From assembly GCA_900767005.1 (NCBI GenBank), contig CAAFXL010000096.1, forward strand, positions 1 through 38,219: 38,219 nucleotides of DNA, given 5' to 3'. This DNA comes from an uncultured Ruminobacter sp. (lineage in GTDB: Bacteria; Pseudomonadota; Gammaproteobacteria; Enterobacterales; Succinivibrionaceae). Of this stretch, positions 22,310 through 32,186 are shown in pieces. A program made the position numbers and the translations under genes. The first letter of the stretch is position 1; each line of letters starts with the position of its first letter. The notes beneath the pieces were generated by a model. The model had not been told where the DNA came from, ran no database searches, and saw nothing but the letters and a program-made list of their open reading frames with translations.

Positions 22310-23470
22310 ATGCCCATTTACAAGAACAAAAATAAACAAGGTTATACAGTTAAAATAAATTACACTGATGATAAAGGTAATCACAAGCAAATTTTACGAT
22401 GTAATAAAGACACGCTTAAAAAAGAAGATGCTCGCGACCTGGAGCGTCGATTGATGGAAGAAATCGAACAAAAGACAATCGCAACAAATCAAAAAATTAC
22501 ATTGAATCAATTATTTCATTGTTATGTGAAAGATTTTGAAACACAACGCAAAGCAAACACCATGCGCCAATTAAAAAGCGTTTATAAAAATCAAATAGGG
22601 CAATATTTAGGTAATTTGAACATCTATAAAATGACTGCTCGCGACATTCAACGATGGCAAACTGAAATCAACCATAAAAAAATAAAAGTCGGGCATAAAA
22701 ACACTATTTTTAAAAATCTTAGAAAGCTATTAAATTATGCTGTCAAAATGTACGACCTACCATCCAACCCATGCGCTAAAGTTGAGCCGTTTAAAGACAC
22801 TAAAAGCCTCGAAGATGACCATATTCAATATTTTACATATGAGCAGTTTAAAACGTTCGATAATGAGCTTTTAAAGCGATTAAACAAAGCGAAGCAATCA
22901 AATCAAATAAGCCAATTTATAAGGCTGTCACAAGGTCGAATATTTTTCAATGTCTTATTTTATGCAGGGCTGAGAAAAGGGGAAGCCAACGCTCTTAACT
23001 GGGGTGATATCATCGAAGAAAACAACACTTTATTTTTAAACATCACAAAATCAATAAATCAAAAAACATGCCCATATGAAATTACTAAGCCAAAGAATAA
23101 AACATCAATACGAAAAGTGCCTATATGCGATGAGCTCAAAAGACTATTGTACGAGCATAAAAGTCTTTGCAAAAACTGCATTGATGGATTCAACGAAAAA
23201 TATTTTATCACAGGGGCATTAAATCCACTGTGCGACACTTTTACAAGCGATTTAAAAAATGATATTATTAAAAGTTGTAAACTGCCAAATATACGAATTC
23301 ACGATTTCCGACATTCATATTGCAGTCTTTTAATTAATGGGGGAGTTCCATTGTACGTAATCGCTCGCCTTTTAGGGCATTCAACAATTGAAATCACGCA
23401 AAAAGTCTATGCTCATATCTACCCTGATTCATTTACACAAGCATTAAACTGCATTAATGCGCTCAAATAG
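22310..23470 (+). CDS. int: Tyrosine integrase with an N-terminal arm-binding domain
   Basis: Catalytic pattern is GLRKGE ... HDFRHSY ... LLGHS ... KVYAHI. The N-terminus YKNKNKQGYTVKINYTDDKGNHKQ is typical of arm-type DNA-binding domains. Confidence 0.9.
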   Translation: MPIYKNKNKQGYTVKINYTDDKGNHKQILRCNKDTLKKEDARDLERRLMEEIEQKTIATNQKITLNQLFHCYVKDFETQRKANTMRQLKSVYKNQIGQYLGNLNIYKMTARDIQRWQTEINHKKIKVGHKNTIFKNLRKLLNYAVKMYDLPSNPCAKVEPFKDTKSLEDDHIQYFTYEQFKTFDNELLKRLNKAKQSNQISQFIRLSQGRIFFNVLFYAGLRKGEANALNWGDIIEENNTLFLNITKSINQKTCPYEITKPKNKTSIRKVPICDELKRLLYEHKSLCKNCIDGFNEKYFITGALNPLCDTFTSDLKNDIIKSCKLPNIRIHDFRHSYCSLLINGGVPLYVIARLLGHSTIEITQKVYAHIYPDSFTQALNCINALK

Positions 23471-24032: not shown

Positions 24033-24554
24033 GTGTCTAATATCAAAAATAAAAAGAAATTTAGAAAAAAGAATCTTCAAATAGGCAATGACAAAATTAC
24101 ACCTGGTGAGCCTTTAACAATGGAGTATTGGACATCAATTGAAGGACTTCAAATCATAGTAGGCTTAATTCTCGATGGCAATGACATTAAAGACATTGTT
24201 AAAGATTACATGCTGATTACTCATCAAACGTTCTTGAATTGGTGCAAAAAATGCCCCGAGTTAAACAAAATACGACTTTTAAAACAAGACTCTTATGATG
24301 CGATGGTAAAAAGCGCATTGCTAAGAAGTTGCGCGGGGTTCTATGAAAATGGCTTATATTATCCACCTAATCCAAAGAGTATAGCTCTATGGTTTGAGCT
24401 AAAACAAAAAAATATTGACTTGCTAGCGATTGAAAATAACAAGCCCCAAATTAATGTTTCAATCAATTTTGATGATGGAAGAAGTGAAGAGATTAAAAGT
24501 CTTGATAAAGACATCCCAAGTGATGAAAACTTGCAAGATGGGAAGGATGAATAA
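24033..24554 (+). CDS. Terminase small subunit (by position)
   Basis: GTG start follows gaggagg. 173 aa with a basic N-terminus and an HTH-like centre. Its stop overlaps the terL ATG (ATAATG). Confidence 0.55.
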   Translation: MSNIKNKKKFRKKNLQIGNDKITPGEPLTMEYWTSIEGLQIIVGLILDGNDIKDIVKDYMLITHQTFLNWCKKCPELNKIRLLKQDSYDAMVKSALLRSCAGFYENGLYYPPNPKSIALWFELKQKNIDLLAIENNKPQINVSINFDDGRSEEIKSLDKDIPSDENLQDGKDE

Positions 24555-25972
24555 TGAACAATATTATTTTTACTCCTAAAGTCCCATTAATCTATAAGCC
24601 CCTATGGGATGAAAACAAGCCAAGAAGATTAATTGATCAATCCAAAAACAAAATTCTTGAAGGGTTAGGGATTGAACCTTTAAACGTTATTAATGAATAT
24701 GTTTTACAAAGCGGAAGAATCAGCGGAAAGACTACAGAATGCAGAGAGTATATTTTATATCGTTTAATGACCATTGAAGGCGCTAATATGGTGGTTACAA
24801 GAGCTGACCAAATCGATATTAGAAGTACAGTATTTAATGGCTTTGTGGGGTTAATCAACAAAATTACAAATAACCATCCTGACGATTGGTTTGACATTAA
24901 AATGTCGCCTTTTTCCATCACTTTTAAACCAAATGGAAATAAAATTTATTTTCTTGCAATTAATGGCGATATTAACAGATCTAAAGGTTTTGAGATAACT
25001 AAAGGCTATCTTGACGTAGTATGGCACGAAGAATGCAATGAAAATGATAAAGCCGACTTTATCGAAGCTTCAAATATGACTTTTTTAAGATTTTTTAAAA
25101 AGTGTTCAAAAATCTTTTATGCTTTCAATACTGAGCCAATTAGAAACCATTGGAGCAATATCCATTTCAAACAAAAGATAAGAGCTGGAGAAGCAATGAG
25201 AATATATGCGACTTGGAAAGACATTTATAAATTTTTGGATGGGTCAACTATTCAAAAGATACTTGATGACAGGTCAAGAAACATTGACTATTATCGATAT
25301 TGGTATTTAGGGCATTTAGTCAATTTAACTGGTTTAGTTTTCCCACAATTCAATAGGTCAAGACATCTTGTGAAAGTTAATTGTGATATTATCGCGTATC
25401 AAATTGGTTCAATCATTATTTCAATTGATGCCGCGAATAAGAACGATGCAACTGCTGCGATTCTTTTAGGTGTTTTAAACGATGGGCGATTGCTCGCCCT
25501 TGATTGTATGTATTATGAACCACTAGGAAGAGAAGGACAAAGAGATATAGGGCAGAAAAACGATTTAGAGGTTTGTGAAATGATTTGTAAATGGTGGCTA
25601 AATTGTAAAGAGCGCTATAAAGGACTTTCAGAGATTAGAAGAGTATATGGCATTGTGGACAATGCAAACTGGTCTTTAATGTCGTTGTTGCAACAATCTG
25701 CAACTTTAAACTATGCTTATTGGCAACCTGCTACAGACAAGATTATTTTAAGAGACACTAAAAGACTACAAAACATGCTTGGTCGTGATTTAATACTATT
25801 CAACATGGCGAGTTATAACGATATTCATTGTGGAATAGAAGAAATTGAATCATATGTTTACGATGAAGATACCTTAGATATTGCAAAAAATCAAAAAGAC
25901 CACTTTATAGATAGTCTTAAGTATGGCACATATGCTTATAACTATCCTGAGATATATAAACAAAATTGTTAA
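24554..25972 (+). CDS. terL: Terminase large subunit
   Basis: Walker A-like SGRISGKTTE, then WHEECNE (Walker B / catalytic Glu region). Size, the C-terminal nuclease-like region and the position before portal all fit. Confidence 0.85.
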   Translation: MNNIIFTPKVPLIYKPLWDENKPRRLIDQSKNKILEGLGIEPLNVINEYVLQSGRISGKTTECREYILYRLMTIEGANMVVTRADQIDIRSTVFNGFVGLINKITNNHPDDWFDIKMSPFSITFKPNGNKIYFLAINGDINRSKGFEITKGYLDVVWHEECNENDKADFIEASNMTFLRFFKKCSKIFYAFNTEPIRNHWSNIHFKQKIRAGEAMRIYATWKDIYKFLDGSTIQKILDDRSRNIDYYRYWYLGHLVNLTGLVFPQFNRSRHLVKVNCDIIAYQIGSIIISIDAANKNDATAAILLGVLNDGRLLALDCMYYEPLGREGQRDIGQKNDLEVCEMICKWWLNCKERYKGLSEIRRVYGIVDNANWSLMSLLQQSATLNYAYWQPATDKIILRDTKRLQNMLGRDLILFNMASYNDIHCGIEEIESYVYDEDTLDIAKNQKDHFIDSLKYGTYAYNYPEIYKQNC

Positions 25973-25981
25973 GGAGGAATT

Positions 25982-27640
25982 ATGTCAGATTATATTTTAA
26001 ATCCTGCAAATTTAACTGTACCAAACACTGATTTTAATAAGTTATTTGGGCAGTATACACAATTTATTTATCAGCAATTAAGACAAAGATATTACAATGA
26101 CACTGGCTTTTTTGCAATGGCTCCGATAGCGTTAAAGAATTTTTATTTTACAACTTTAAAAAGGAATCTTGAATGGTTTAGGGGAGCAGTTCCGGGTATA
26201 CATCCTTATGGGATTTTTCCATGTTTTCAAGGCTCATCAGCTTGTAATTGTGTTGCTAATATGGTTTCCGCTGGAGACTTTAGAATTGAAGCAGAAGACC
26301 CACGACATAAGCAATATATCGAAGATATGATTAATTACAAGAAAGTGAGAAAAAAACTCAAAAGAAGCCTTCCAATGTGGCTTGCTTGCGGTTTTATGCT
26401 TGCTGTAATTGATGTTAATGGTAAAGATGAATGGACTATCAACTATTCAAATGGTAATCGTTACTTTGTCGAAGTTGATGATGAGGGGAAAGTTTTAGCG
26501 TTTAGGCGAATGATAATGTTTAGAAGCTCATCAATCGATAATACTGACAAAGGATATTATTTAGTTGAGGATAGATGGCTTAAATCTATCGAAGGAAGAA
26601 ATAGATGTTTCCATGCTTATCAAGTGTATCAAGGGAAATCAAGCGCTCAAGACATTAATTCTACGCTATCACCATGCTTTAATCCACCTGATAAGATTTT
26701 AAACGAATTAAGGCAAAAATTAGGCGTTTATGAATTAAACACAATCTATGAATTGCCTTTTGAAAATCATATTGGTGCAGTTGTCATTAATGCAACAAAA
26801 ACTTGTCTAGGCATTGAAGACCATCCGGAGTTAAGCGACTCAATATTAGATGGTGCGCAAACATTTTTGCTTGAATACGACCAAACATTTACATCGAAAC
26901 AAAAAGATAGAATAATGGCTGATAAAGGTGTAATTGTACCTGAAGCAATGCTTCCAACTGATTTTACAGTGTCATCACCTGAAACATATAACCAATATTT
27001 AAACTATGTAGATTTAAAGAAAAATGGTCTTTCAAATGTGTTTAGAAGTGTAAAATCAATGGCACCGGACAAGCAAGCGCCTTTCTTTTTCCAATCTGAT
27101 TATAGGCAATCTGACTACAATGCTGATTTAGACCAAATTAAAGGAAGAATAGCGGATGCGATAAAAATTAGCCCTGCCGACTTTGGAAGTCGAACTCAAA
27201 TTGGAGATGGTGGAAGTAATAAAACTGCAACCGAAATCACAGCATTAACAGGAATATCCAAAACCACTGTAGAAGAAATGAGATTATCCATTTCTGATGG
27301 TATGGAAGAATTATTTAGAGTCATTTTAAAACATGCTTTTAACGATGAAAATGCAAAATGTTCAATGGTGTTTAATTCTTCTCAAAGTGCTGACCCAATG
27401 TCTGAAACTGAAGATATCATCAAACAAAAAGATGCTGGATTGTTAAGCCGTAAAGTTGCTATTCAAAGAAAGAATCCAAACTTATCAAATGAAGAAATTG
27501 ACAAATTGATTGAAGAAATCAAGATGGACGAACAAGAGCAACAACAAAATGATATATTTGCTCAAAATGGAGGCGATGAATTTGACTACGGACAGGATGA
27601 AAATATCACGCCAGAAGGCGATAACATTAACGCAGATTAG
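25982..27640 (+). CDS. Portal protein
   Basis: 552 aa immediately after terL, with an acidic C-terminal tail. Order is typical of SPP1-like head modules. Confidence 0.7.
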   Translation: MSDYILNPANLTVPNTDFNKLFGQYTQFIYQQLRQRYYNDTGFFAMAPIALKNFYFTTLKRNLEWFRGAVPGIHPYGIFPCFQGSSACNCVANMVSAGDFRIEAEDPRHKQYIEDMINYKKVRKKLKRSLPMWLACGFMLAVIDVNGKDEWTINYSNGNRYFVEVDDEGKVLAFRRMIMFRSSSIDNTDKGYYLVEDRWLKSIEGRNRCFHAYQVYQGKSSAQDINSTLSPCFNPPDKILNELRQKLGVYELNTIYELPFENHIGAVVINATKTCLGIEDHPELSDSILDGAQTFLLEYDQTFTSKQKDRIMADKGVIVPEAMLPTDFTVSSPETYNQYLNYVDLKKNGLSNVFRSVKSMAPDKQAPFFFQSDYRQSDYNADLDQIKGRIADAIKISPADFGSRTQIGDGGSNKTATEITALTGISKTTVEEMRLSISDGMEELFRVILKHAFNDENAKCSMVFNSSQSADPMSETEDIIKQKDAGLLSRKVAIQRKNPNLSNEEIDKLIEEIKMDEQEQQQNDIFAQNGGDEFDYGQDENITPEGDNINAD

Positions 27641-28781
27641 AAAACTAGAAGCAAAAATCAAAACAACAATAGTGAAAAATGCTCATAGTGGTGTTTCAAA
27701 AATTAACACTATAAAAGATATTCAAAAATTAATTCTAAGTAATTTAAAAGTTTTTAATATTTTGGAAAATCCAAAGTATTATATTGATTCATCGAATTAT
27801 TGGGCGAATGTTTATGCTAATAGTTATTACAAAAAAATTAACGCGATTAAAACTTCATTATTTGCTACTTTGCTCTTGTTAAAGAATAAATCCAAAGAAG
27901 AATATCAGGAAATTAACAAAAAAAACATCTTACCATTGGATGAAAAACAAAATGTTTTATCACCTAAAGAAGAAAAGAAAAAAATCAATGTTGTCAAAAA
28001 TATTGTTGAAAAACTTAAAAAATTTAAAACAACAACGCCAATAAAAGAGGCTATTAACATTATTGATGATGAACATATTATTGAATATGCAAAAGGTCTT
28101 TTGCCAAATATGCCAAACTACAAAAAAATGGTAAAAGATGAAATGAATTTGCTTGCTACTAGAAATTTTGGCGGTATTCCAACAATTGATAAAAATGGGA
28201 GAGTCTATTATGGGCGCTCCCTTTTTGCTAGCGCTGAAAGAGATATTAGATTTAATTATCACTTTCAAAAAATAAACGAAATGAAAGCGAAAGGAGTAAC
28301 AAATGTTTGGGTAACTTCACATGCCAATTGTTCAAAACGATGCCAACCATTTCAGGGGCGAGCTTATACCCTAGATGGAACTACAAGAACTATTGATGGA
28401 ATCACTTTAGAACCAATAGAAAACGCAACTGAAATTTATGTAACTACAAAAAGTGGTAAAGTATGGCGAAATGGTCTTTTTGGTTTTAATTGTCGACACG
28501 ATTTAAAAGAATTTACTCCACGAAGTAAAGCCCCTGTAAGTTATAGTGCGGAAGAAATTGATAAAATGCGCGGAATTGAATCAAAACAAAGAGCATTTGA
28601 AAGAAGACTTTATCAAATTGATATGCAACGCGCAATTTATGAAAGTGCAGGCGATAAAGAATCTTTATCAGAAGCCAATAGATTAAGACAAAAATATAAA
28701 ATTCTTGAAACAAAATACAAATTGTTTTGCGAAAAAAACCAAGTTAAACCGCAACCATCAAGATATAAAACTTGGTTATAA
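27597..28781 (+). CDS. Head morphogenesis protein, MuF / SPP1 gp7-like
   Basis: The C-terminal region VTSHANCSKRCQPFQGRAYTLDG ... GFNCRHDL fits the MuF-like pattern. Start is uncertain: the ORF is open from 27510 and overlaps the portal end. Confidence 0.6.
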   Translation: MKISRQKAITLTQIRKLEAKIKTTIVKNAHSGVSKINTIKDIQKLILSNLKVFNILENPKYYIDSSNYWANVYANSYYKKINAIKTSLFATLLLLKNKSKEEYQEINKKNILPLDEKQNVLSPKEEKKKINVVKNIVEKLKKFKTTTPIKEAINIIDDEHIIEYAKGLLPNMPNYKKMVKDEMNLLATRNFGGIPTIDKNGRVYYGRSLFASAERDIRFNYHFQKINEMKAKGVTNVWVTSHANCSKRCQPFQGRAYTLDGTTRTIDGITLEPIENATEIYVTTKSGKVWRNGLFGFNCRHDLKEFTPRSKAPVSYSAEEIDKMRGIESKQRAFERRLYQIDMQRAIYESAGDKESLSEANRLRQKYKILETKYKLFCEKNQVKPQPSRYKTWL

Positions 28782-28798: not shown

Positions 28799-29431
28799 AT
28801 GCTTTTTAAATACATCAAAAATAAAATTCAAGAAAGGAGGAAAAAGAAGAGCATGGATAAAATCATTCTTGAATTAAAAAAATTGCTTGATAATGGTGCT
28901 TTAAGTCAAGAAGAGTATAACTTGGCTATATCAAAACTACAACCTGAAAATTCATCTAATCCAAATGATGAAAAATCTTCTGAACCAATTGAATCAGGTG
29001 AAAAAGATAATAGCGAAGATATACAAGAAGTGGAAAATCAAGAAAATGAGTCCGGTGCGGATGAAGTTGAAAACATTGAAGAAGAATCTAAATCCGAAGA
29101 TGAAATCAATGATGATGAAGATGAAATCAATGATGATGAAACTTTTGAGACCGAGAACGAACCTCTTGATAATCCATCTGCTATAGACAATGAGCAAATT
29201 AATCAAGAACCAAACCAAACTTCTCAAACAACACCAGAAGGAGATAATGGTAATGTTTTAAATGTTATTTTAGAAAAATTAACAGCTTTAGAACAAAAAG
29301 TAGAATCTATTTCTACTAATACAGGTGTTGACCCAACAAAACCACTAGGAAAATATAATCAAAAATTTGACAACCAAAAAGAAGACTATGGTGATTATGG
29401 TCCTGGTGTAAGAACCATTTATTCAAAATAG
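28799..29431 (+). CDS. Acidic scaffolding protein with an N-terminal SHOCT-like motif
   Basis: Lies between the MuF-like and capsid genes. The centre is extremely D/E-rich. LKKLLDNGALSQEEYNLAISKL is SHOCT-like. Start is 28799 or 28853. Confidence 0.6.
   Translation: MLFKYIKNKIQERRKKKSMDKIILELKKLLDNGALSQEEYNLAISKLQPENSSNPNDEKSSEPIESGEKDNSEDIQEVENQENESGADEVENIEEESKSEDEINDDEDEINDDETFETENEPLDNPSAIDNEQINQEPNQTSQTTPEGDNGNVLNVILEKLTALEQKVESISTNTGVDPTKPLGKYNQKFDNQKEDYGDYGPGVRTIYSK
29096..29137. repeat. 21-nt tandem duplication in the scaffold gene
   Basis: gaagatgaaatcaatgatgat occurs twice in tandem and encodes EDEINDDEDEINDD. Confidence 0.9.
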
Positions 29432-29451: not shown

Positions 29452-30801
29452 ATGGCTAATATTACAGATGCAATTTTAGATAAATACCTCAGCGGAAGTG
29501 GAGCAACTAAAAAATCAGCTCAAGGTTATACTTACGTTGATGGTAACGCATTACCAAATGTTATTTCAAACGCAGTTTTAACTGCATATCTTGCTAAAAC
29601 TTGGATTGTTCCAGGTGTTGGATGTACTGAAGAATTTGTCGCAGGTTATGATACTCAAAAAATTAATTCAGTCTATGTTGAAATGCAAGCTGACATTGGT
29701 CCAACCACTCGTACAATTGGCGAAGGTGGTACCAGTGGCAATTCTGGTATTATCAACTTACAACCATCAATCATGGTTTCAACAGAAATGTTTGAAATCC
29801 CTTTAAAACAAGTTGATGATCAACCTTTATTCTTCCCAAGAATGCAACTTGAAACAATGAGATATGATAAGACTAAAAAAGCCTTAGCAAATCATATCGA
29901 CAACATGGTACTTTCAAGAGCAACTTATGAAACAGCTGTAGCAATTCAATATGCTTTATTTAGAGCTTCAAAAGAATATACCGCTAGTGGCAATACTGCT
30001 GGAGCATTACCAAGCGCTCAATTCGTTGAAGTTGATTCAACAAAATTCTATGATGACAATTACATTATTTCAGTCTTAGACAAATTAGATGAATTAATGG
30101 ATAATGGTGATGAATTAATGCAAACAATGTCATTCAGTGGCCCAAGAGCATTAGTTGGAAGATTATCATTCTTAGATAAACTTAAATCACCAAAATCAGG
30201 ATTCGTTCAAACCGCTGCAAGTGCTGCATACGATTTATTGATTTCTGAAAACTTTGACTCAAGTTCAGTAAATGATATTTTTGAAGGCACAACCGAAAGA
30301 AAATATCTTGATATAAGAGGTTACTCATGCTATACAGTACCAGCACAAGCATGGAAATATGTTGAAACTTGGTTAGGATTGTCCGAAGGTAAACTTAAAA
30401 ATGTCTTAGGAATTGTTGTTTCACCTCAACAACTTGCAACAGGTGGAGTTACTGAAGATAACACTATTGTTAAAGATACTACATATCCTGCTATTGGTGT
30501 TGGAGCATATCCATACCGTAAATTCGGTGCAAGAGGATATAGAAATATTATTGTTATCGTTGATAGCGGATTTAAAGCACAAGCTTCAGCAGGAGATTTT
30601 GCAACACTTATGGGAACTAAAGGATCAGGAGCACCTATTGAATCATTAACTGGATTAGTTGCACCACTCAACTTTAAGACAAGAACTATTGTTGAAAATA
30701 ATATTGCAGGTGGTCCTGCTATTCAAATTGCAGCAGTAGGCGACAGCAAGTCTAAAGCTGGAAAAGTAACCGGATTAGAATTACCAGAGAAATCTGAATA
30801 A
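29452..30801 (+). CDS. Major capsid protein
   Basis: 449 aa with a strong RBS aaaggagg. It follows the scaffold gene and is itself followed by a strong terminator, which is typical placement. Confidence 0.75.
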   Translation: MANITDAILDKYLSGSGATKKSAQGYTYVDGNALPNVISNAVLTAYLAKTWIVPGVGCTEEFVAGYDTQKINSVYVEMQADIGPTTRTIGEGGTSGNSGIINLQPSIMVSTEMFEIPLKQVDDQPLFFPRMQLETMRYDKTKKALANHIDNMVLSRATYETAVAIQYALFRASKEYTASGNTAGALPSAQFVEVDSTKFYDDNYIISVLDKLDELMDNGDELMQTMSFSGPRALVGRLSFLDKLKSPKSGFVQTAASAAYDLLISENFDSSSVNDIFEGTTERKYLDIRGYSCYTVPAQAWKYVETWLGLSEGKLKNVLGIVVSPQQLATGGVTEDNTIVKDTTYPAIGVGAYPYRKFGARGYRNIIVIVDSGFKAQASAGDFATLMGTKGSGAPIESLTGLVAPLNFKTRTIVENNIAGGPAIQIAAVGDSKSKAGKVTGLELPEKSE

Positions 30802-30814
30802 TTAATAATTTTCT

Positions 30815-30849
30815 AAGAGAAGTTGAAGAAATTTGACTTCTCTTTTTTT
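30815..30849 (+). terminator. Rho-independent terminator after the capsid gene
   Basis: 9-bp stem aagagaagt/acttctctt with a 12-nt loop and a 7-nt T run. Confidence 0.75.
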
Positions 30850-30904
30850 ATCACAAAAAGAGTGTTAAGTGGTGCAAATCCACTATTGTGAAAGGAGAAA
30901 TAAT

Positions 30905-31270
30905 ATGAAAACAAAATTAAATCACGGCGGACATCAACAACCAATTGACGAAGGTGGAAAATATCTTTCAAGCAAAGACAAAGAAAAAGAAACCAAAGAT
31001 AATGGCTTAAAACGTACACCGCAAGAAAAAGCGTTAGATTACAACGCTCAAAAACCAACATTTGAAAGCGATAATAAAGCCCCACAGGAAGAAGATTCTT
31101 TATCTATTATTCAAGACCTTATCGCGGATGAATACGAGGCTATAGATGGCTATAAATACGCTATAGAACACATACATAATGAATTAATTCAAAATGAATT
31201 TAAAACAATTCTTGAAGAAGAAGAAAAGCATATTAAAATGCTTGATTCTATAAAAGAAAAACTAAAATAG
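30905..31270 (+). CDS. Small protein with the shared N-terminal module plus a two-helix ferritin-like (E-x6-Y ... ExxH) C-terminus
   Basis: ATG at 30905 follows aaaggag. The N-terminus MKTKLNHGGHQQPI is shared with the next gene. The C-terminus reads LIADEYEAIDGYKYAIEHIHNELIQNEFKTILEEEEKHIKML. Confidence 0.6.
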   Translation: MKTKLNHGGHQQPIDEGGKYLSSKDKEKETKDNGLKRTPQEKALDYNAQKPTFESDNKAPQEEDSLSIIQDLIADEYEAIDGYKYAIEHIHNELIQNEFKTILEEEEKHIKMLDSIKEKLK

Positions 31271-31280
31271 GAGGTTCCTT

Positions 31281-31886
31281 ATGCCAACAAAAAGAAATAA
31301 AGCTGGATATCAACAACCTTATGTTGGAAAAGGTCATGGCGATGAATCTGGAGAATATCGCGACAATGGATATGGTGGAAGTGCTCCTAGTGTAAATCAT
31401 GGTAGACAAAATGCACAAGTAACAAATAATTATTTAGATTATCAAACTAAACCAATTGAAAAAATGGGCAAAGAAAATCCGACTAACGAGGTATATGAAT
31501 TAAGAACTAATTATAAAAAGATTTTAAACAAATATATAACATATCCTGAGGGTACTTACGATTTATCAACTGGTAAAGAAATAACCTATAAGGATGGATA
31601 TCAAGTTTCCTTCCACCAAACTAGTGACAATTATAGTCAAGAAGAGTATAATAAAATTGTAGATGAATTAAAAACTATTTCTGGTTCAGGTGCTCATATT
31701 GGGGTTTTTGATGAAGAACCTGAAGTAAGTTTTCATTTTAATTCATTAGAAGAAGCTAAAAAAGTCATGAAGAAGTACAATCAACATTCTATATTTGACT
31801 GGAAAGCATATGCAACTGGTAGACCTAGTAAGGAATGGTATATTAAAAATGACAGTTTAGACAAATCTAAAAATAATGTATCATAA
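31281..31886 (+). CDS. Protein with the same N-terminal module plus an unrelated globular C-terminal domain
   Basis: N-terminus is MPTKRNKAGYQQPY and the second shared motif is LDYQTKP. C-terminal domain includes GYQVSFHQTSDNYSQEEYNKIV...IGVFDEEPEVSFHF. Confidence 0.6.
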   Translation: MPTKRNKAGYQQPYVGKGHGDESGEYRDNGYGGSAPSVNHGRQNAQVTNNYLDYQTKPIEKMGKENPTNEVYELRTNYKKILNKYITYPEGTYDLSTGKEITYKDGYQVSFHQTSDNYSQEEYNKIVDELKTISGSGAHIGVFDEEPEVSFHFNSLEEAKKVMKKYNQHSIFDWKAYATGRPSKEWYIKNDSLDKSKNNVS

Positions 31887-31907: not shown

Positions 31908-32186
31908 ATGAACATGGAATTAATCAAAAAATATATAGATCAATATAATGAAGATTACAATTTATTTTATCTTGCTACTGGTGGGGATGGCAATCAAGAA
32001 AAATTAAATGAAAGAATTGAAAAAAATGAGGAGCCTTTACTTGAACAAATGACTGATGAAGAAATTCGTTATTTGTCAAAGAATCATGCCCATGGTATGG
32101 GTGAAAGGATGTATTATCACGCAATTTTAAAAAGAAGACAAGAGCAAAAATTGTCAAAAGAGAATAAAGTTGTTATTAGTAAATAA
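31908..32186 (+). CDS. Hypothetical protein
   Basis: 92 aa with an RBS aaaggag. Last gene before the terminator. Confidence 0.5.
   Translation: MNMELIKKYIDQYNEDYNLFYLATGGDGNQEKLNERIEKNEEPLLEQMTDEEIRYLSKNHAHGMGERMYYHAILKRRQEQKLSKENKVVISK

Follow-up and report, generated by a model that had tools for sequence, protein, structure and literature searches.

The window analyzed here, a 38,219-nt stretch comprising positions 1 to 38,219 of contig CAAFXL010000096.1 from an uncultured Ruminobacter sp., carries a complete temperate siphophage genome in circularly permuted form (source contig 38,292 bp). Two genes, designated A and B, lie directly 3' of the putative major capsid gene of this phage. Working from the letters alone, an original prediction had held that the two proteins open with a common N-terminal module, here called the leader, and that A ends in a motif like that of encapsulated ferritins (EncFtn). 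Both open reading frames (ORFs) and all strings quoted for them were exact, and the residue counts were right. Related loci and proteins are referred to below by L and P numbers, respectively. The features of the two genes are as follows.

30905..31270, + strand: gene A, leader-tagged EncFtn-like half-ferritin, 121 aa, ATG start with AAAGGAG ahead
30905..30964, + strand: leader motif 1 of A, residues 1-20, MKTKLNHGGHQQPIDEGGKY, a short leader variant
31034..31063, + strand: motif 2 of A, residues 44-53, LDYNAQKPTF, aligning with TPQDKAKEYGIEKPNF of the B ortholog P0007
31094..31267, + strand: EncFtn-like two-helix domain of A, residues 64-121, with a putative di-iron half-site formed by D75, E76, E78, Y83, E106, and H109
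31281..31886, + strand: gene B, leader-tagged α/β domain protein, 201 aa, with AGGAGG ahead
31281..31379, + strand: leader of B, residues 1-33, MPTKRNKAGYQQPYVGKGHGDESGEYRDNGYGG, canonical type, scoring 2.4e-20 with the canonical-leader hidden Markov model (HMM)
31434..31454, + strand: motif 2 of B, residues 52-58, LDYQTKP, as read from the sequence
31482..31865, + strand: C-terminal α/β domain of B, residues 68-195, predicted by AlphaFold2 (AF2) with a local confidence score (pLDDT) of ~90

The first residues of A (MKTKLNHGGHQQP) and B (MPTKRNKAGYQQP) are identical at 8 of 13 positions, and the second shared motif named in the original prediction is also present, as LDYNAQKP in A (residues 44-51) and LDYQTKP in B (residues 52-58). 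BLASTP aligned A with B across the first 35 residues (E = 9e-4) and with P0007, which is 55% identical to B, at E = 2e-7, in an alignment that takes in TPQEKALDYNAQKPTF against TPQDKAKEYGIEKPNF. The canonical-leader HMM, for which 20 leaders were taken from unrelated proteins other than A and B, was searched against the 147 six-frame ORFs of the window, and only B (2.4e-20) and A (1.1e-4) stood above noise, the next ORF scoring 4.2. These E-values and HMM scores place the similarity of the two N-termini beyond chance. Motif 1 of A is invariant among A homologs down to 50% overall identity, and residues 2-14 were predicted by AF2 to form a β-hairpin (pLDDT 82-85). Motif 2 of A, in which D45, Y46, P51, and F53 are invariant among A homologs, is tentatively regarded as the counterpart of the canonical HFxxFKKP element described below. 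Motif 2 of B is conserved as [NL]xYQTK in P0008, P0010, P0014, and P0015.

HMMER was run on 1.84 billion representative proteins with a profile made of the A-type and B-type N-termini. At E ≤ 1e-3 it recovered 103 proteins, in about 90% of which the match began at residue 1, and 95 had TKxN inside the first 30 residues; the count of ~100 protein clusters used below came from a sub-optimal profile. The leader is ~35-60 residues long, with the consensus MPTKxNxAGxQQ[NP]YVPxGNGDASGEYxDNxxGSNxHFxxFKKP, and comprises motif 1 ([MP]TKxNxxGxQQx[YI]), an optional VPxGNGD[AE]SGEY segment, and the short motif 2 ([FY]xx[FQ](x)KP). The short variant of A, TKxNxGGxQQPxDxxGKY, is without the VPxGNGDAS insert. 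This short form also occurs in L021 (METKKNNAGEQQPMDEKGRYTFKNFHKP), on an ADP-ribosyltransferase (ART) of L016 (MPLKDGGGGKPQPYDDETGRYTQFQNFARP), and on a half-ferritin of L076 (MPLKEGGKGHQQSYDHTTGKY), and motif 1 of A has a further parallel in L019. No Pfam model spanned the leader itself in 81 leader proteins, and the leader matched nothing in the PDB, searched as a profile, or among the PLSDB plasmids. The only match of P0046 among the GenBank phages was to a minor capsid protein of a Stenotrophomonas phage, in its C-terminal part.

The order capsid-A-B is fixed in five related phage contigs (L001, L012-L015), and gene A is present in every contig of this group. The first ~60 residues of B are kept within the group, and its C-terminal domain alternates between a 201/215-aa type and a 295-319-aa type; altogether, three C-domain types stand behind the module in these phages. 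The leader of B is found on other C-domains in P0008, P0010, P0015, and P0024-P0120. The original prediction had proposed looking for the module on other C-terminal domains in relatives, and it was found there, both on the three types in the group and across the ~100 protein clusters overall. Because of that 100-cluster distribution, a recent local duplication as the sole source of the resemblance was excluded. The two genes do share a module as predicted, but it is not private to them; it is a widespread leader, of which A bears a short and divergent variant.

The domains behind the leader are diverse. In Pfam, the 81 leader proteins matched ADPrib_exo_Tox (6), Gln_amidase (4), ATLF (4), Zeta_toxin (2), M90 (2), and MPTase-PolyVal (1), Gln_amidase being a papain-fold glutamine deamidase toxin and ATLF an anthrax-LF-like metallopeptidase. 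PHROG assignments were head morphogenesis (12), ART (6), Alt-like ART (1), and head maturation protease (2), and most C-domains had no annotation. Gene neighborhoods were sampled at 16 IMG/VR loci together with L016 and L017. In 17 of the 18 contigs with visible neighbors, the leader genes were located between the portal/MuF-like and scaffold/capsid genes or directly 3' of the capsid gene. The order in L016/L017 and the IMG/VR loci is terminase, portal, MuF-like gene (with an NCRH motif), one or two leader genes, a small ORF, scaffold, and capsid; in L023 and the group of the window, the leader genes come immediately after the capsid gene. Tandem pairs of tagged genes are frequent (L016, L019, L020, L021). 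The leader occurs in at least two head-module lineages, which have portal and MuF2-type genes in common and capsids without BLAST-detectable similarity. On the explanation that we prefer, A and B belong to an extensive and so far undescribed group of accessory proteins that bear the leader and are specified by head modules of uncultured siphophages, whose host range is probably the Firmicutes.

Several observations concern the short ORFs near leader genes. The pattern F..F.[KR][PKN] ('FxxFKKP') occurs 21 times in 288 leader-locus ORFs, compared to 2.5 ± 1.5 in shuffled sequences. It also forms the C-termini of small ORFs downstream of leader genes (...RFSNFKKN, ...QFNEFKKKEEK, ...LRNFKKGN, ...SFSSFKQPKKE); loci carrying the element include L018:10545-10826, L020:10128-10388, L022:10224-10490, L029:5140-5364, and L022:8764-8997. 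From its sequence distribution, the element behaves like a portable docking peptide that may sit at either terminus. Small ORFs follow most leader genes, and several belong to conserved families regardless of effector type. In one lineage, they have a common C-terminal module, ...IRKLLKQYGAEDNEIENFMxDL...LKATEEGKDLIxNAPKMAKDELKKAI, behind any type of effector (L016:8128-8598, L019:9201-9734, L021:9473-10063, L026:5255-5554, L028:9843-10145), which favors an assembly or chaperone role over specific immunity. The idea that the leader mimics the C-terminus of the scaffold (DPTKPLGKY...DYGPG) was considered and rejected (hhalign probability 0.06%).

Judged by sequence and predicted fold, the C-terminal 58 residues of A are an EncFtn-type two-helix half-ferritin in which every EncFtn metal-site position is kept. 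The domain carries LIADEYEAIDGYKY and ILEEEEKHIKML, with spacings of 7 residues from E76 to Y83 and 30 from E76 to E106, followed by E106-x-x-H109, and AF2 placed its helices at residues 65-89 and 93-120 (pLDDT ~96). Pfam gave sub-threshold matches to DUF2383 (1.3e-5) and Ferritin (6.1e-5). Against 18,950 NCBIfam models, the only meaningful matches were EncB_fam (NF058679, 6.9e-7) and ferrit_encaps (TIGR04535, 3.7e-6), both below the curated cut-offs at 29.3 versus 90 bits and 26.9 versus 125 bits, respectively. A Foldseek search of 350,542 PDB chains was led by Myxococcus xanthus EncB (7s5c/7s5k), with a root mean square deviation of 0.8 Å over 58 residues and a template modeling (TM) score of 0.8-0.93 on the target. 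Next in the ranking were the DF1 di-iron designs, P. furiosus EncFtn (5n5e), EncC (7s8t), and R. rubrum EncFtn (5da5).

The sole relative of A found among 185,579 reference genomes was L005:7965-8336, from the archaeon Methanolinea, which aligned with A by BLASTP at 46% identity over 41 residues (69-109) with E = 3e-8. This protein is a genuine EncFtn, since it matches 5n5e at 4.7e-13, ends in a C-terminal TTIGSLKE (...GGATTIGSLKE), and is followed by a gene for a 265-aa encapsulin. Comparison of a profile of phage half-ferritins with a small EncFtn profile by hhalign gave a probability of 86.6% (E = 4.4e-6), and the metal-site residues of A aligned with those of L005, P. furiosus, and EncC. 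In R. rubrum EncFtn, the di-iron centre is formed by Glu32, Tyr39, Glu62, and His65 from two chains, with Glu31 and Glu34 at the entry site (PMC5012862). D75, E76, E78, Y83, E106, and H109 of A have the same spacing as E31, E32, E34, Y39, E62, and H65 of that protein, A having Asp in place of Glu31. The six positions are invariant among A homologs and 24 divergent phage half-ferritins. The ferritin-like C-terminus of the original prediction is therefore homologous to the encapsulated ferritins, by NCBIfam, BLASTP, hhalign, and Foldseek, and not a mere resemblance of pattern. The likeness to encapsulin cargo drawn there holds for the domain only. A ends in ...DSIKEKLK at the end of helix 2, with no GSLK-type C-terminal targeting peptide, and it has no encapsulin shell partner; lacking both, A is EncFtn-like rather than an encapsulin cargo protein. 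Neither A nor B had a meaningful match in PHROG or any match in PADLOC.

Searches of viral and genome collections with full-length A gave almost nothing, since the tblastn confirmation step was too strict for a 57-residue domain. Half-ferritins were therefore sought in IMG/VR with a degenerate DNA pattern for DE.EAI.GY. Of the 91 loci obtained, 36 (28 of them distinct) are short ORFs, 56-217 aa in length, in which [ED]xxH follows further along; because the pattern was derived from the family of A, this census is biased to the 'GY' subtype and is a lower bound. Eighteen of 24 phage half-ferritins matched ferrit_encaps (best 5.7e-14) and EncB_fam (best 8.1e-12), and any other family was matched by at most two of the 24. 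The recurrent gene map, with approximate lengths in aa, is large terminase (~490), portal (~540), MuF (~270-336), an ORF x, scaffold (~190), an ORF of ~63, capsid (~405), half-ferritin, and connectors, which is the arrangement of the window; alternatively, the half-ferritin lies between portal/MuF and scaffold/capsid. Among 119 neighboring proteins, the PHROGs seen most often were portal (8), large terminase (8), and major head protein (7), and next came ARTs (4), ADP-ribosylglycohydrolase (3), and minor head protein (3).

An HMM search of the leader loci revealed further half-ferritins. L022:8764-8997 (77 aa) starts with MTFKNFKRP, that is, with motif 2 alone; those of L029 and L030 (139 aa) contain ...AKQTFEKFSKPDEE..., and that of L033 is also 139 aa long. 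Leader elements occur on half-ferritins as motif 1 in L076 and as motif 2 in L022, L029, and L033. Two phage half-ferritins searched by tblastn against 50,697 GenBank phages had no match. Longer half-ferritins from IMG/VR (L048, L062, L087, L120) keep the region of the third EncFtn helix, ...EEHAHVGELHKVLALVNPD.... These longer ones occur on contigs of 100-233 kb, and so the family is not limited to small siphophages.

In B, AF2 predicted residues 1-67 to be disordered. The α/β domain that follows has no Pfam counterpart, gave no fold match in the PDB at E < 0.1 (I-SceI and RRM noise ranked highest), and shows a weak link to DUF3293. Its matches in BFVD (E 2e-4 to 1e-3) are uncharacterized phage proteins and segments of phage proteins of 800-1100 aa. 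Conserved motifs are YDL.TGK, GYQVSF, PEVSFH, and YNQHS. Distant homologs of the domain have an N-terminus of the form W.E..HPRDKSGQFTSKG.GG in place of the leader, and some lie upstream of terminase genes; these homologs are P0012, P0016, P0017, L023:8293-8994, and L007:4308-4937. In L023, one of them is situated after the capsid gene, adjoining a leader gene. Their 'HPRDxxGxF' N-terminal motif resembles the HGDESGEYRDNGYGG ('GDxSGEY') segment of the leader with an offset of one residue. The alternative C-domain of B (~230 aa, ...LSGFAIT.DGDLVSV[FY]NL...LDCY...GFK...), seen in P0008, P0010, P0015, and P0024 (L001:10001-10960, L012:10001-10909), looks by eye like a GNAT acetyltransferase; it had no match in Pfam, the PDB, or NCBIfam, and in PHROG it matched only phrog_2563, of unknown function (5e-5).

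A 92-aa gene is found downstream of the 201/215-aa type of B only, in the window and L014; L001, L012, and L013, in which B bears the other C-domain, lack it. Its product gave a weak, suggestive hhalign match (47.5% probability, E = 1.9e-4) to products of small genes behind the distant B-domain homologs, and is a possible cognate partner or immunity-like protein of B. An A-B pair also occurs at L002:9604-11208 (also L003 and L004), a 1.6-kb prophage remnant directly 3' of cas9-cas1-cas2-csn2 (type II-A) in the chromosome of a spore-former. The remnant is made up of two genes, one A-like (121 aa) and one B-like (295 aa), together with the 5' portion of a 163-aa head-tail gene, and L002 has two repeat-like GTTTGAGAGTAGT stretches at ~9163 and ~9229. 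The truncated head-tail gene led us to reject the notion that the pair is an independent mobile cassette beside cas9.

The remaining features of the head module and its surroundings in the window are as follows.

22310-23470: integrase
24554-25972: large terminase
25982..27640, + strand: portal protein, 552 aa, with a weak precomputed Pfam SPP1_portal match in the identical contig and relatives
27582..28781, + strand: MuF2/minor capsid protein 2, 399 aa (Pfam PF06152, 6.9e-14; phrog_581, minor head protein, 6.7e-23)
28853..29431, + strand: acidic scaffold-like protein, 192 aa, assigned from position and composition, with a C-terminus conserved in relatives
29452..30801, + strand: putative major capsid protein, 449 aa, assigned from synteny only
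30815..30852, + strand: intrinsic-terminator-like hairpin and T-run 3' of the capsid gene, with a 13-pair stem, a 4-nt loop, and a TTTTTATC tail
31908..32186, + strand: 92-aa gene travelling with the B C-domain type

The portal protein is 20-25% identical to portals of other leader-encoding phages. MuF2, which would be 423 aa long if started at the TTG at 27510, is a candidate receptor for the leader; at the sampled loci, the portal-adjacent gene encodes a PF06152 match (weak in one case), a protein homologous by BLAST to the MuF2 of the window, or a 258-343-aa protein with the NCRH motif. The N-terminus of the scaffold-like protein (28853-28960) gave a sub-threshold match to the SHOCT domain (PF09851, 1.8e-4), and ~63-70-aa ORFs between the scaffold and capsid genes of related modules share a similar ...GKITPEDxExAK... 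motif. The capsid candidate is conserved in L001, L012, L013, and L015. It had no BLAST or jackhmmer link to the capsid candidates of other leader-encoding phages and no similarity to the L005 encapsulin shell by BLASTP (E 3.6). The original prediction had set A and B behind a major capsid gene and its terminator; the terminator stood, with its 13-bp stem, and the capsid gene is identified by synteny only. Strong Shine-Dalgarno sequences precede gene A, gene B, and the 92-aa gene, and head-tail and tail genes lie further downstream. No prohead protease gene was found between the portal and capsid genes of the window or of related modules, in agreement with what had been predicted. The A/B region had no blastn match among the 50,697 GenBank phages.

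From the position of the leader genes and the kinds of domain behind the leader, we infer that the leader acts as a tag for incorporation into the virion, docking at the portal/MuF2 complex or inside the procapsid, with A as a tagged ferroxidase and B as a tagged effector. We put the probability of this reading at roughly 55%. The leader would dock its cargo non-covalently to a conserved component of the procapsid, most plausibly the portal/MuF2 complex, or else the inner capsid or scaffold. The cargo would keep its tag, since the head module has no prohead protease gene. A may dimerize head-to-tail via two bridging metal ions into a four-helix bundle, possibly forming higher oligomers, and could oxidize Fe(II) inside the particle, giving Dps-like protection of the packaged DNA, or in the host after ejection. 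B would deliver its α/β effector domain, possibly paired with the downstream 92-aa product.

Several findings weigh against this interpretation. Minimal 56-aa phage half-ferritins are without any leader, and so the role of the ferritin cannot depend on the leader everywhere. An EncFtn-style decamer of ~130 kDa would be bulky for a DNA-filled head. The Foldseek E-values for A are all ~0.1, the hairpin being short. The capsid candidate had no match in Pfam, PHROG, the PDB, or, by tblastn, the GenBank phages, its identity coming from synteny alone, and the leader consensus likewise had no tblastn homolog among the 50,697 GenBank phages, leaving no proteomics to borrow. The register of motif 2 in A and B is one residue off that of the canonical FxxFKKP, and the leader of B was modeled by AF2 at pLDDT < 50 from an alignment that held few leader sequences. 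One leader gene, for the ART P0027, is found close to the end of its contig, behind genes for replication and methylases and outside any visible head module. In addition, the A-like and B-like ORFs of the prophage remnant are intact in at least seven contigs without capsid genes, which fits a capsid-independent function.

The repertoire and the position of the leader proteins match those of two described classes of phage protein. In MuF polymorphic toxins, 20% of which are metallopeptidases and 14% ARTs, the effector is fused to MuF and has been proposed to be packaged and injected (PMC5576092), and phage polyvalent proteins show the same effector pattern (PMC5512222). As in these families, the leader genes occupy a head-module site beside the portal and MuF genes, encode a constant N-terminal region joined to variable effectors (ART, metallopeptidase, papain-fold, zeta/P-loop), and are often followed by a small ORF, and a packaging-and-injection route is proposed. 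Polymorphic toxins at large combine a conserved N-terminal trafficking part, a hypervariable C-terminal domain, and a cognate small gene downstream. The leader family has the first two; as to the third, several of the small ORFs behind leader genes come from conserved families, and the homology of the 92-aa product to other partners is only suggestive. In contrast to the MuF toxins, MuF2 stands on its own here as a 'short MuF', and each effector has its own gene, with a leader of ~45 residues as the constant part and no MuF domain; in Pfam, neither A, B, nor any of the 81 leader proteins had a MuF match. Because repertoire and position match, the leader system may be a 'split' MuF toxin, in which the leader would stand in for the covalent link to MuF. 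A and B themselves lie after the capsid gene and have domains that are not known toxins. We know of no ferritin-like cargo in the MuF toxin or polyvalent protein families. None is described in the reports on MuF toxins (PMC5576092) or polyvalent proteins (PMC5512222).

The encapsulated ferritins themselves (TIGR04535, NF058679; 5da5, 5n5e, 7s5c, 7s8t) are the best profile and fold matches of A. They have in common with it a two-helix half-ferritin of ~55-60 residues, the ferroxidase residues E, Y+7, E+30, and H+33 with two acidic entry-site residues, a short terminal peptide tag on a flexible linker, and an adjoining shell gene of HK97 lineage, which for the phage we infer. They differ in that the tag of A is N-terminal, unrelated to the C-terminal (L/I)xxGSLK targeting peptide, and also heads toxins; that A stops at the second helix, without the third short helix; and that its shell neighbor is a phage capsid candidate unlike encapsulin (Linocin_M18-type), within a complete tailed-phage genome. 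The domain of A and the 56-aa phage versions also align end to end with DF1 (E 1.6e-3 to 6e-5), and, as in the DF1/DF2 (Due Ferri) designs, A has an E...ExxH half-site on a homodimerizing hairpin. Those proteins are designed, however, and the resemblance shows that the minimal requirements are present rather than any ancestry.

In phage T4, a capsid targeting sequence (CTS) of ~10 residues binds the scaffolding core, steers internal proteins and Alt into the prohead, and is cleaved by gp21. On the virion-tag reading, the leader would be a functional counterpart of the CTS and of encapsulin targeting peptides. A and B resemble CTS cargo in that a short N-terminal peptide is common to unrelated proteins of one phage, and the leader family also includes ARTs, one leader protein matching an Alt-like PHROG. 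The leader differs from the CTS in having no sequence similarity to it and no accompanying protease gene, in being much longer and bipartite, and in belonging to an SPP1-like siphophage head. T4 with its CTS and gp21, together with the Prp-processed N-termini of the phage 80α capsid and scaffold proteins, provides precedent for a sub-variant of the virion-tag reading in which the leader is a propeptide cut off by a host or phage protease after assembly. The flexible low-complexity linker behind the leader (pLDDT < 60) would suit such cleavage, and two leader C-domains match 'head maturation protease' PHROGs, while the many zincin peptidases could process cargo. By direct reading, however, the leader contains neither the LxE (T4) nor the LQFF|A (Prp) cleavage motif, and with no prohead protease gene in the head module of the window or in related ones, we consider cleavage very improbable.

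A different possibility is that the half-ferritin acts outside the shell or in its assembly, as a decoration or cement protein anchored to the capsid exterior by the leader, or as a scaffold-like assembly factor. The position directly 3' of the capsid gene is the classical slot for decoration proteins, and half-ferritins fill it in the window and in L083, L099, L103, L039, L102, and L107. The leaderless 56-aa half-ferritins would also fit, metal-bridged dimers could act as a structural staple, and a 2025 preprint stresses how EncFtn-type cargo parallels the dimers of phage scaffolds in its helix-loop-helix form (10.1101/2025.06.18.659913). Yet the same leader is carried by ARTs, peptidases, deamidases, and zeta-type kinases, whose targets are cytoplasmic and whose homologs are proposed or known to be injected, and hhalign found no similarity between leader and scaffold. 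The six metal-site positions are moreover invariant across very divergent phage half-ferritins, a degree of conservation that one would expect of catalysis or metal binding but not of a plain staple. An external or assembly role is, on this evidence, unlikely. Less probable still is that A, B, and the 92-aa gene form a lysogenic-conversion (moron) cassette expressed from the prophage for protection against iron or oxidative stress and as a toxin/immunity pair, with the leader as a signal for export or localization that has nothing to do with the virion. In favor of this are the temperate nature of the phage (integrase at 22310-23470), the terminator ahead of A, and the strong ribosome-binding site that A and B each possess. 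The remnant at L002:9604-11208 keeps both ORFs beside CRISPR-Cas in at least seven contigs with no capsid genes, the C-domain type of B co-varies with the 92-aa gene in the manner of a toxin/immunity pair, and distant homologs of the B C-domain lie outside head modules. Promoter-like sites were nevertheless not above shuffled sequences (21 versus 15.1 ± 4.1), and all of the phage contigs examined have these genes in one orientation, closely spaced within late operons. The leader is hydrophilic, glycine-rich, and Q/K-rich, without Sec, Tat, or helical WXG/LXG-type signal features by direct reading, PADLOC returned zero matches, and the remnant retains a truncated head-tail gene, which gives it the appearance of a deletion leftover.

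The virion-tag reading has a broader form, which we regard as doubtful, in which this group of phages runs true cargo loading. The leader and/or the FxxFKKP element would dock enzymes within the procapsid, with an EncFtn-type ferroxidase as a standard cargo, and heads or empty procapsids would serve as an encapsulin-like iron-oxidizing compartment. The encapsulin-plus-EncFtn pair could then descend from such a module, the cargo predating domestication of the shell.

Targeting peptides, packaged effectors, and EncFtn are concepts already known. The apparent novelties are the leader tag, the split arrangement, and the recurrence of genes for EncFtn-type proteins in the head modules of tailed phages. 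A literature search, which lay mostly outside subscription journals and in which absence is not proof, gave no match for 'QQPYVP', this leader, or phage-encoded encapsulated ferritins. If the leader is a virion tag, it would provide a sequence-recognizable mark for finding virion-delivered phage effectors in metagenomes and a handle for loading foreign proteins into phage heads. Encapsulins are currently viewed as domesticated prophage capsids (PMC8346489), and the recurrence of a signature encapsulin cargo in genuine tailed-phage head modules, often beside the capsid gene, bears on that origin. The 2025 preprint raises the question of whether cargo-like proteins that are encoded by viruses co-assemble in procapsids (10.1101/2025.06.18.659913), and the leader phages make this directly testable. 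If confirmed, the association of a di-iron protein with phage heads, whether they carry it or are made together with it, would in anaerobic gut-type hosts represent a new side of phage-host iron and redox biology.

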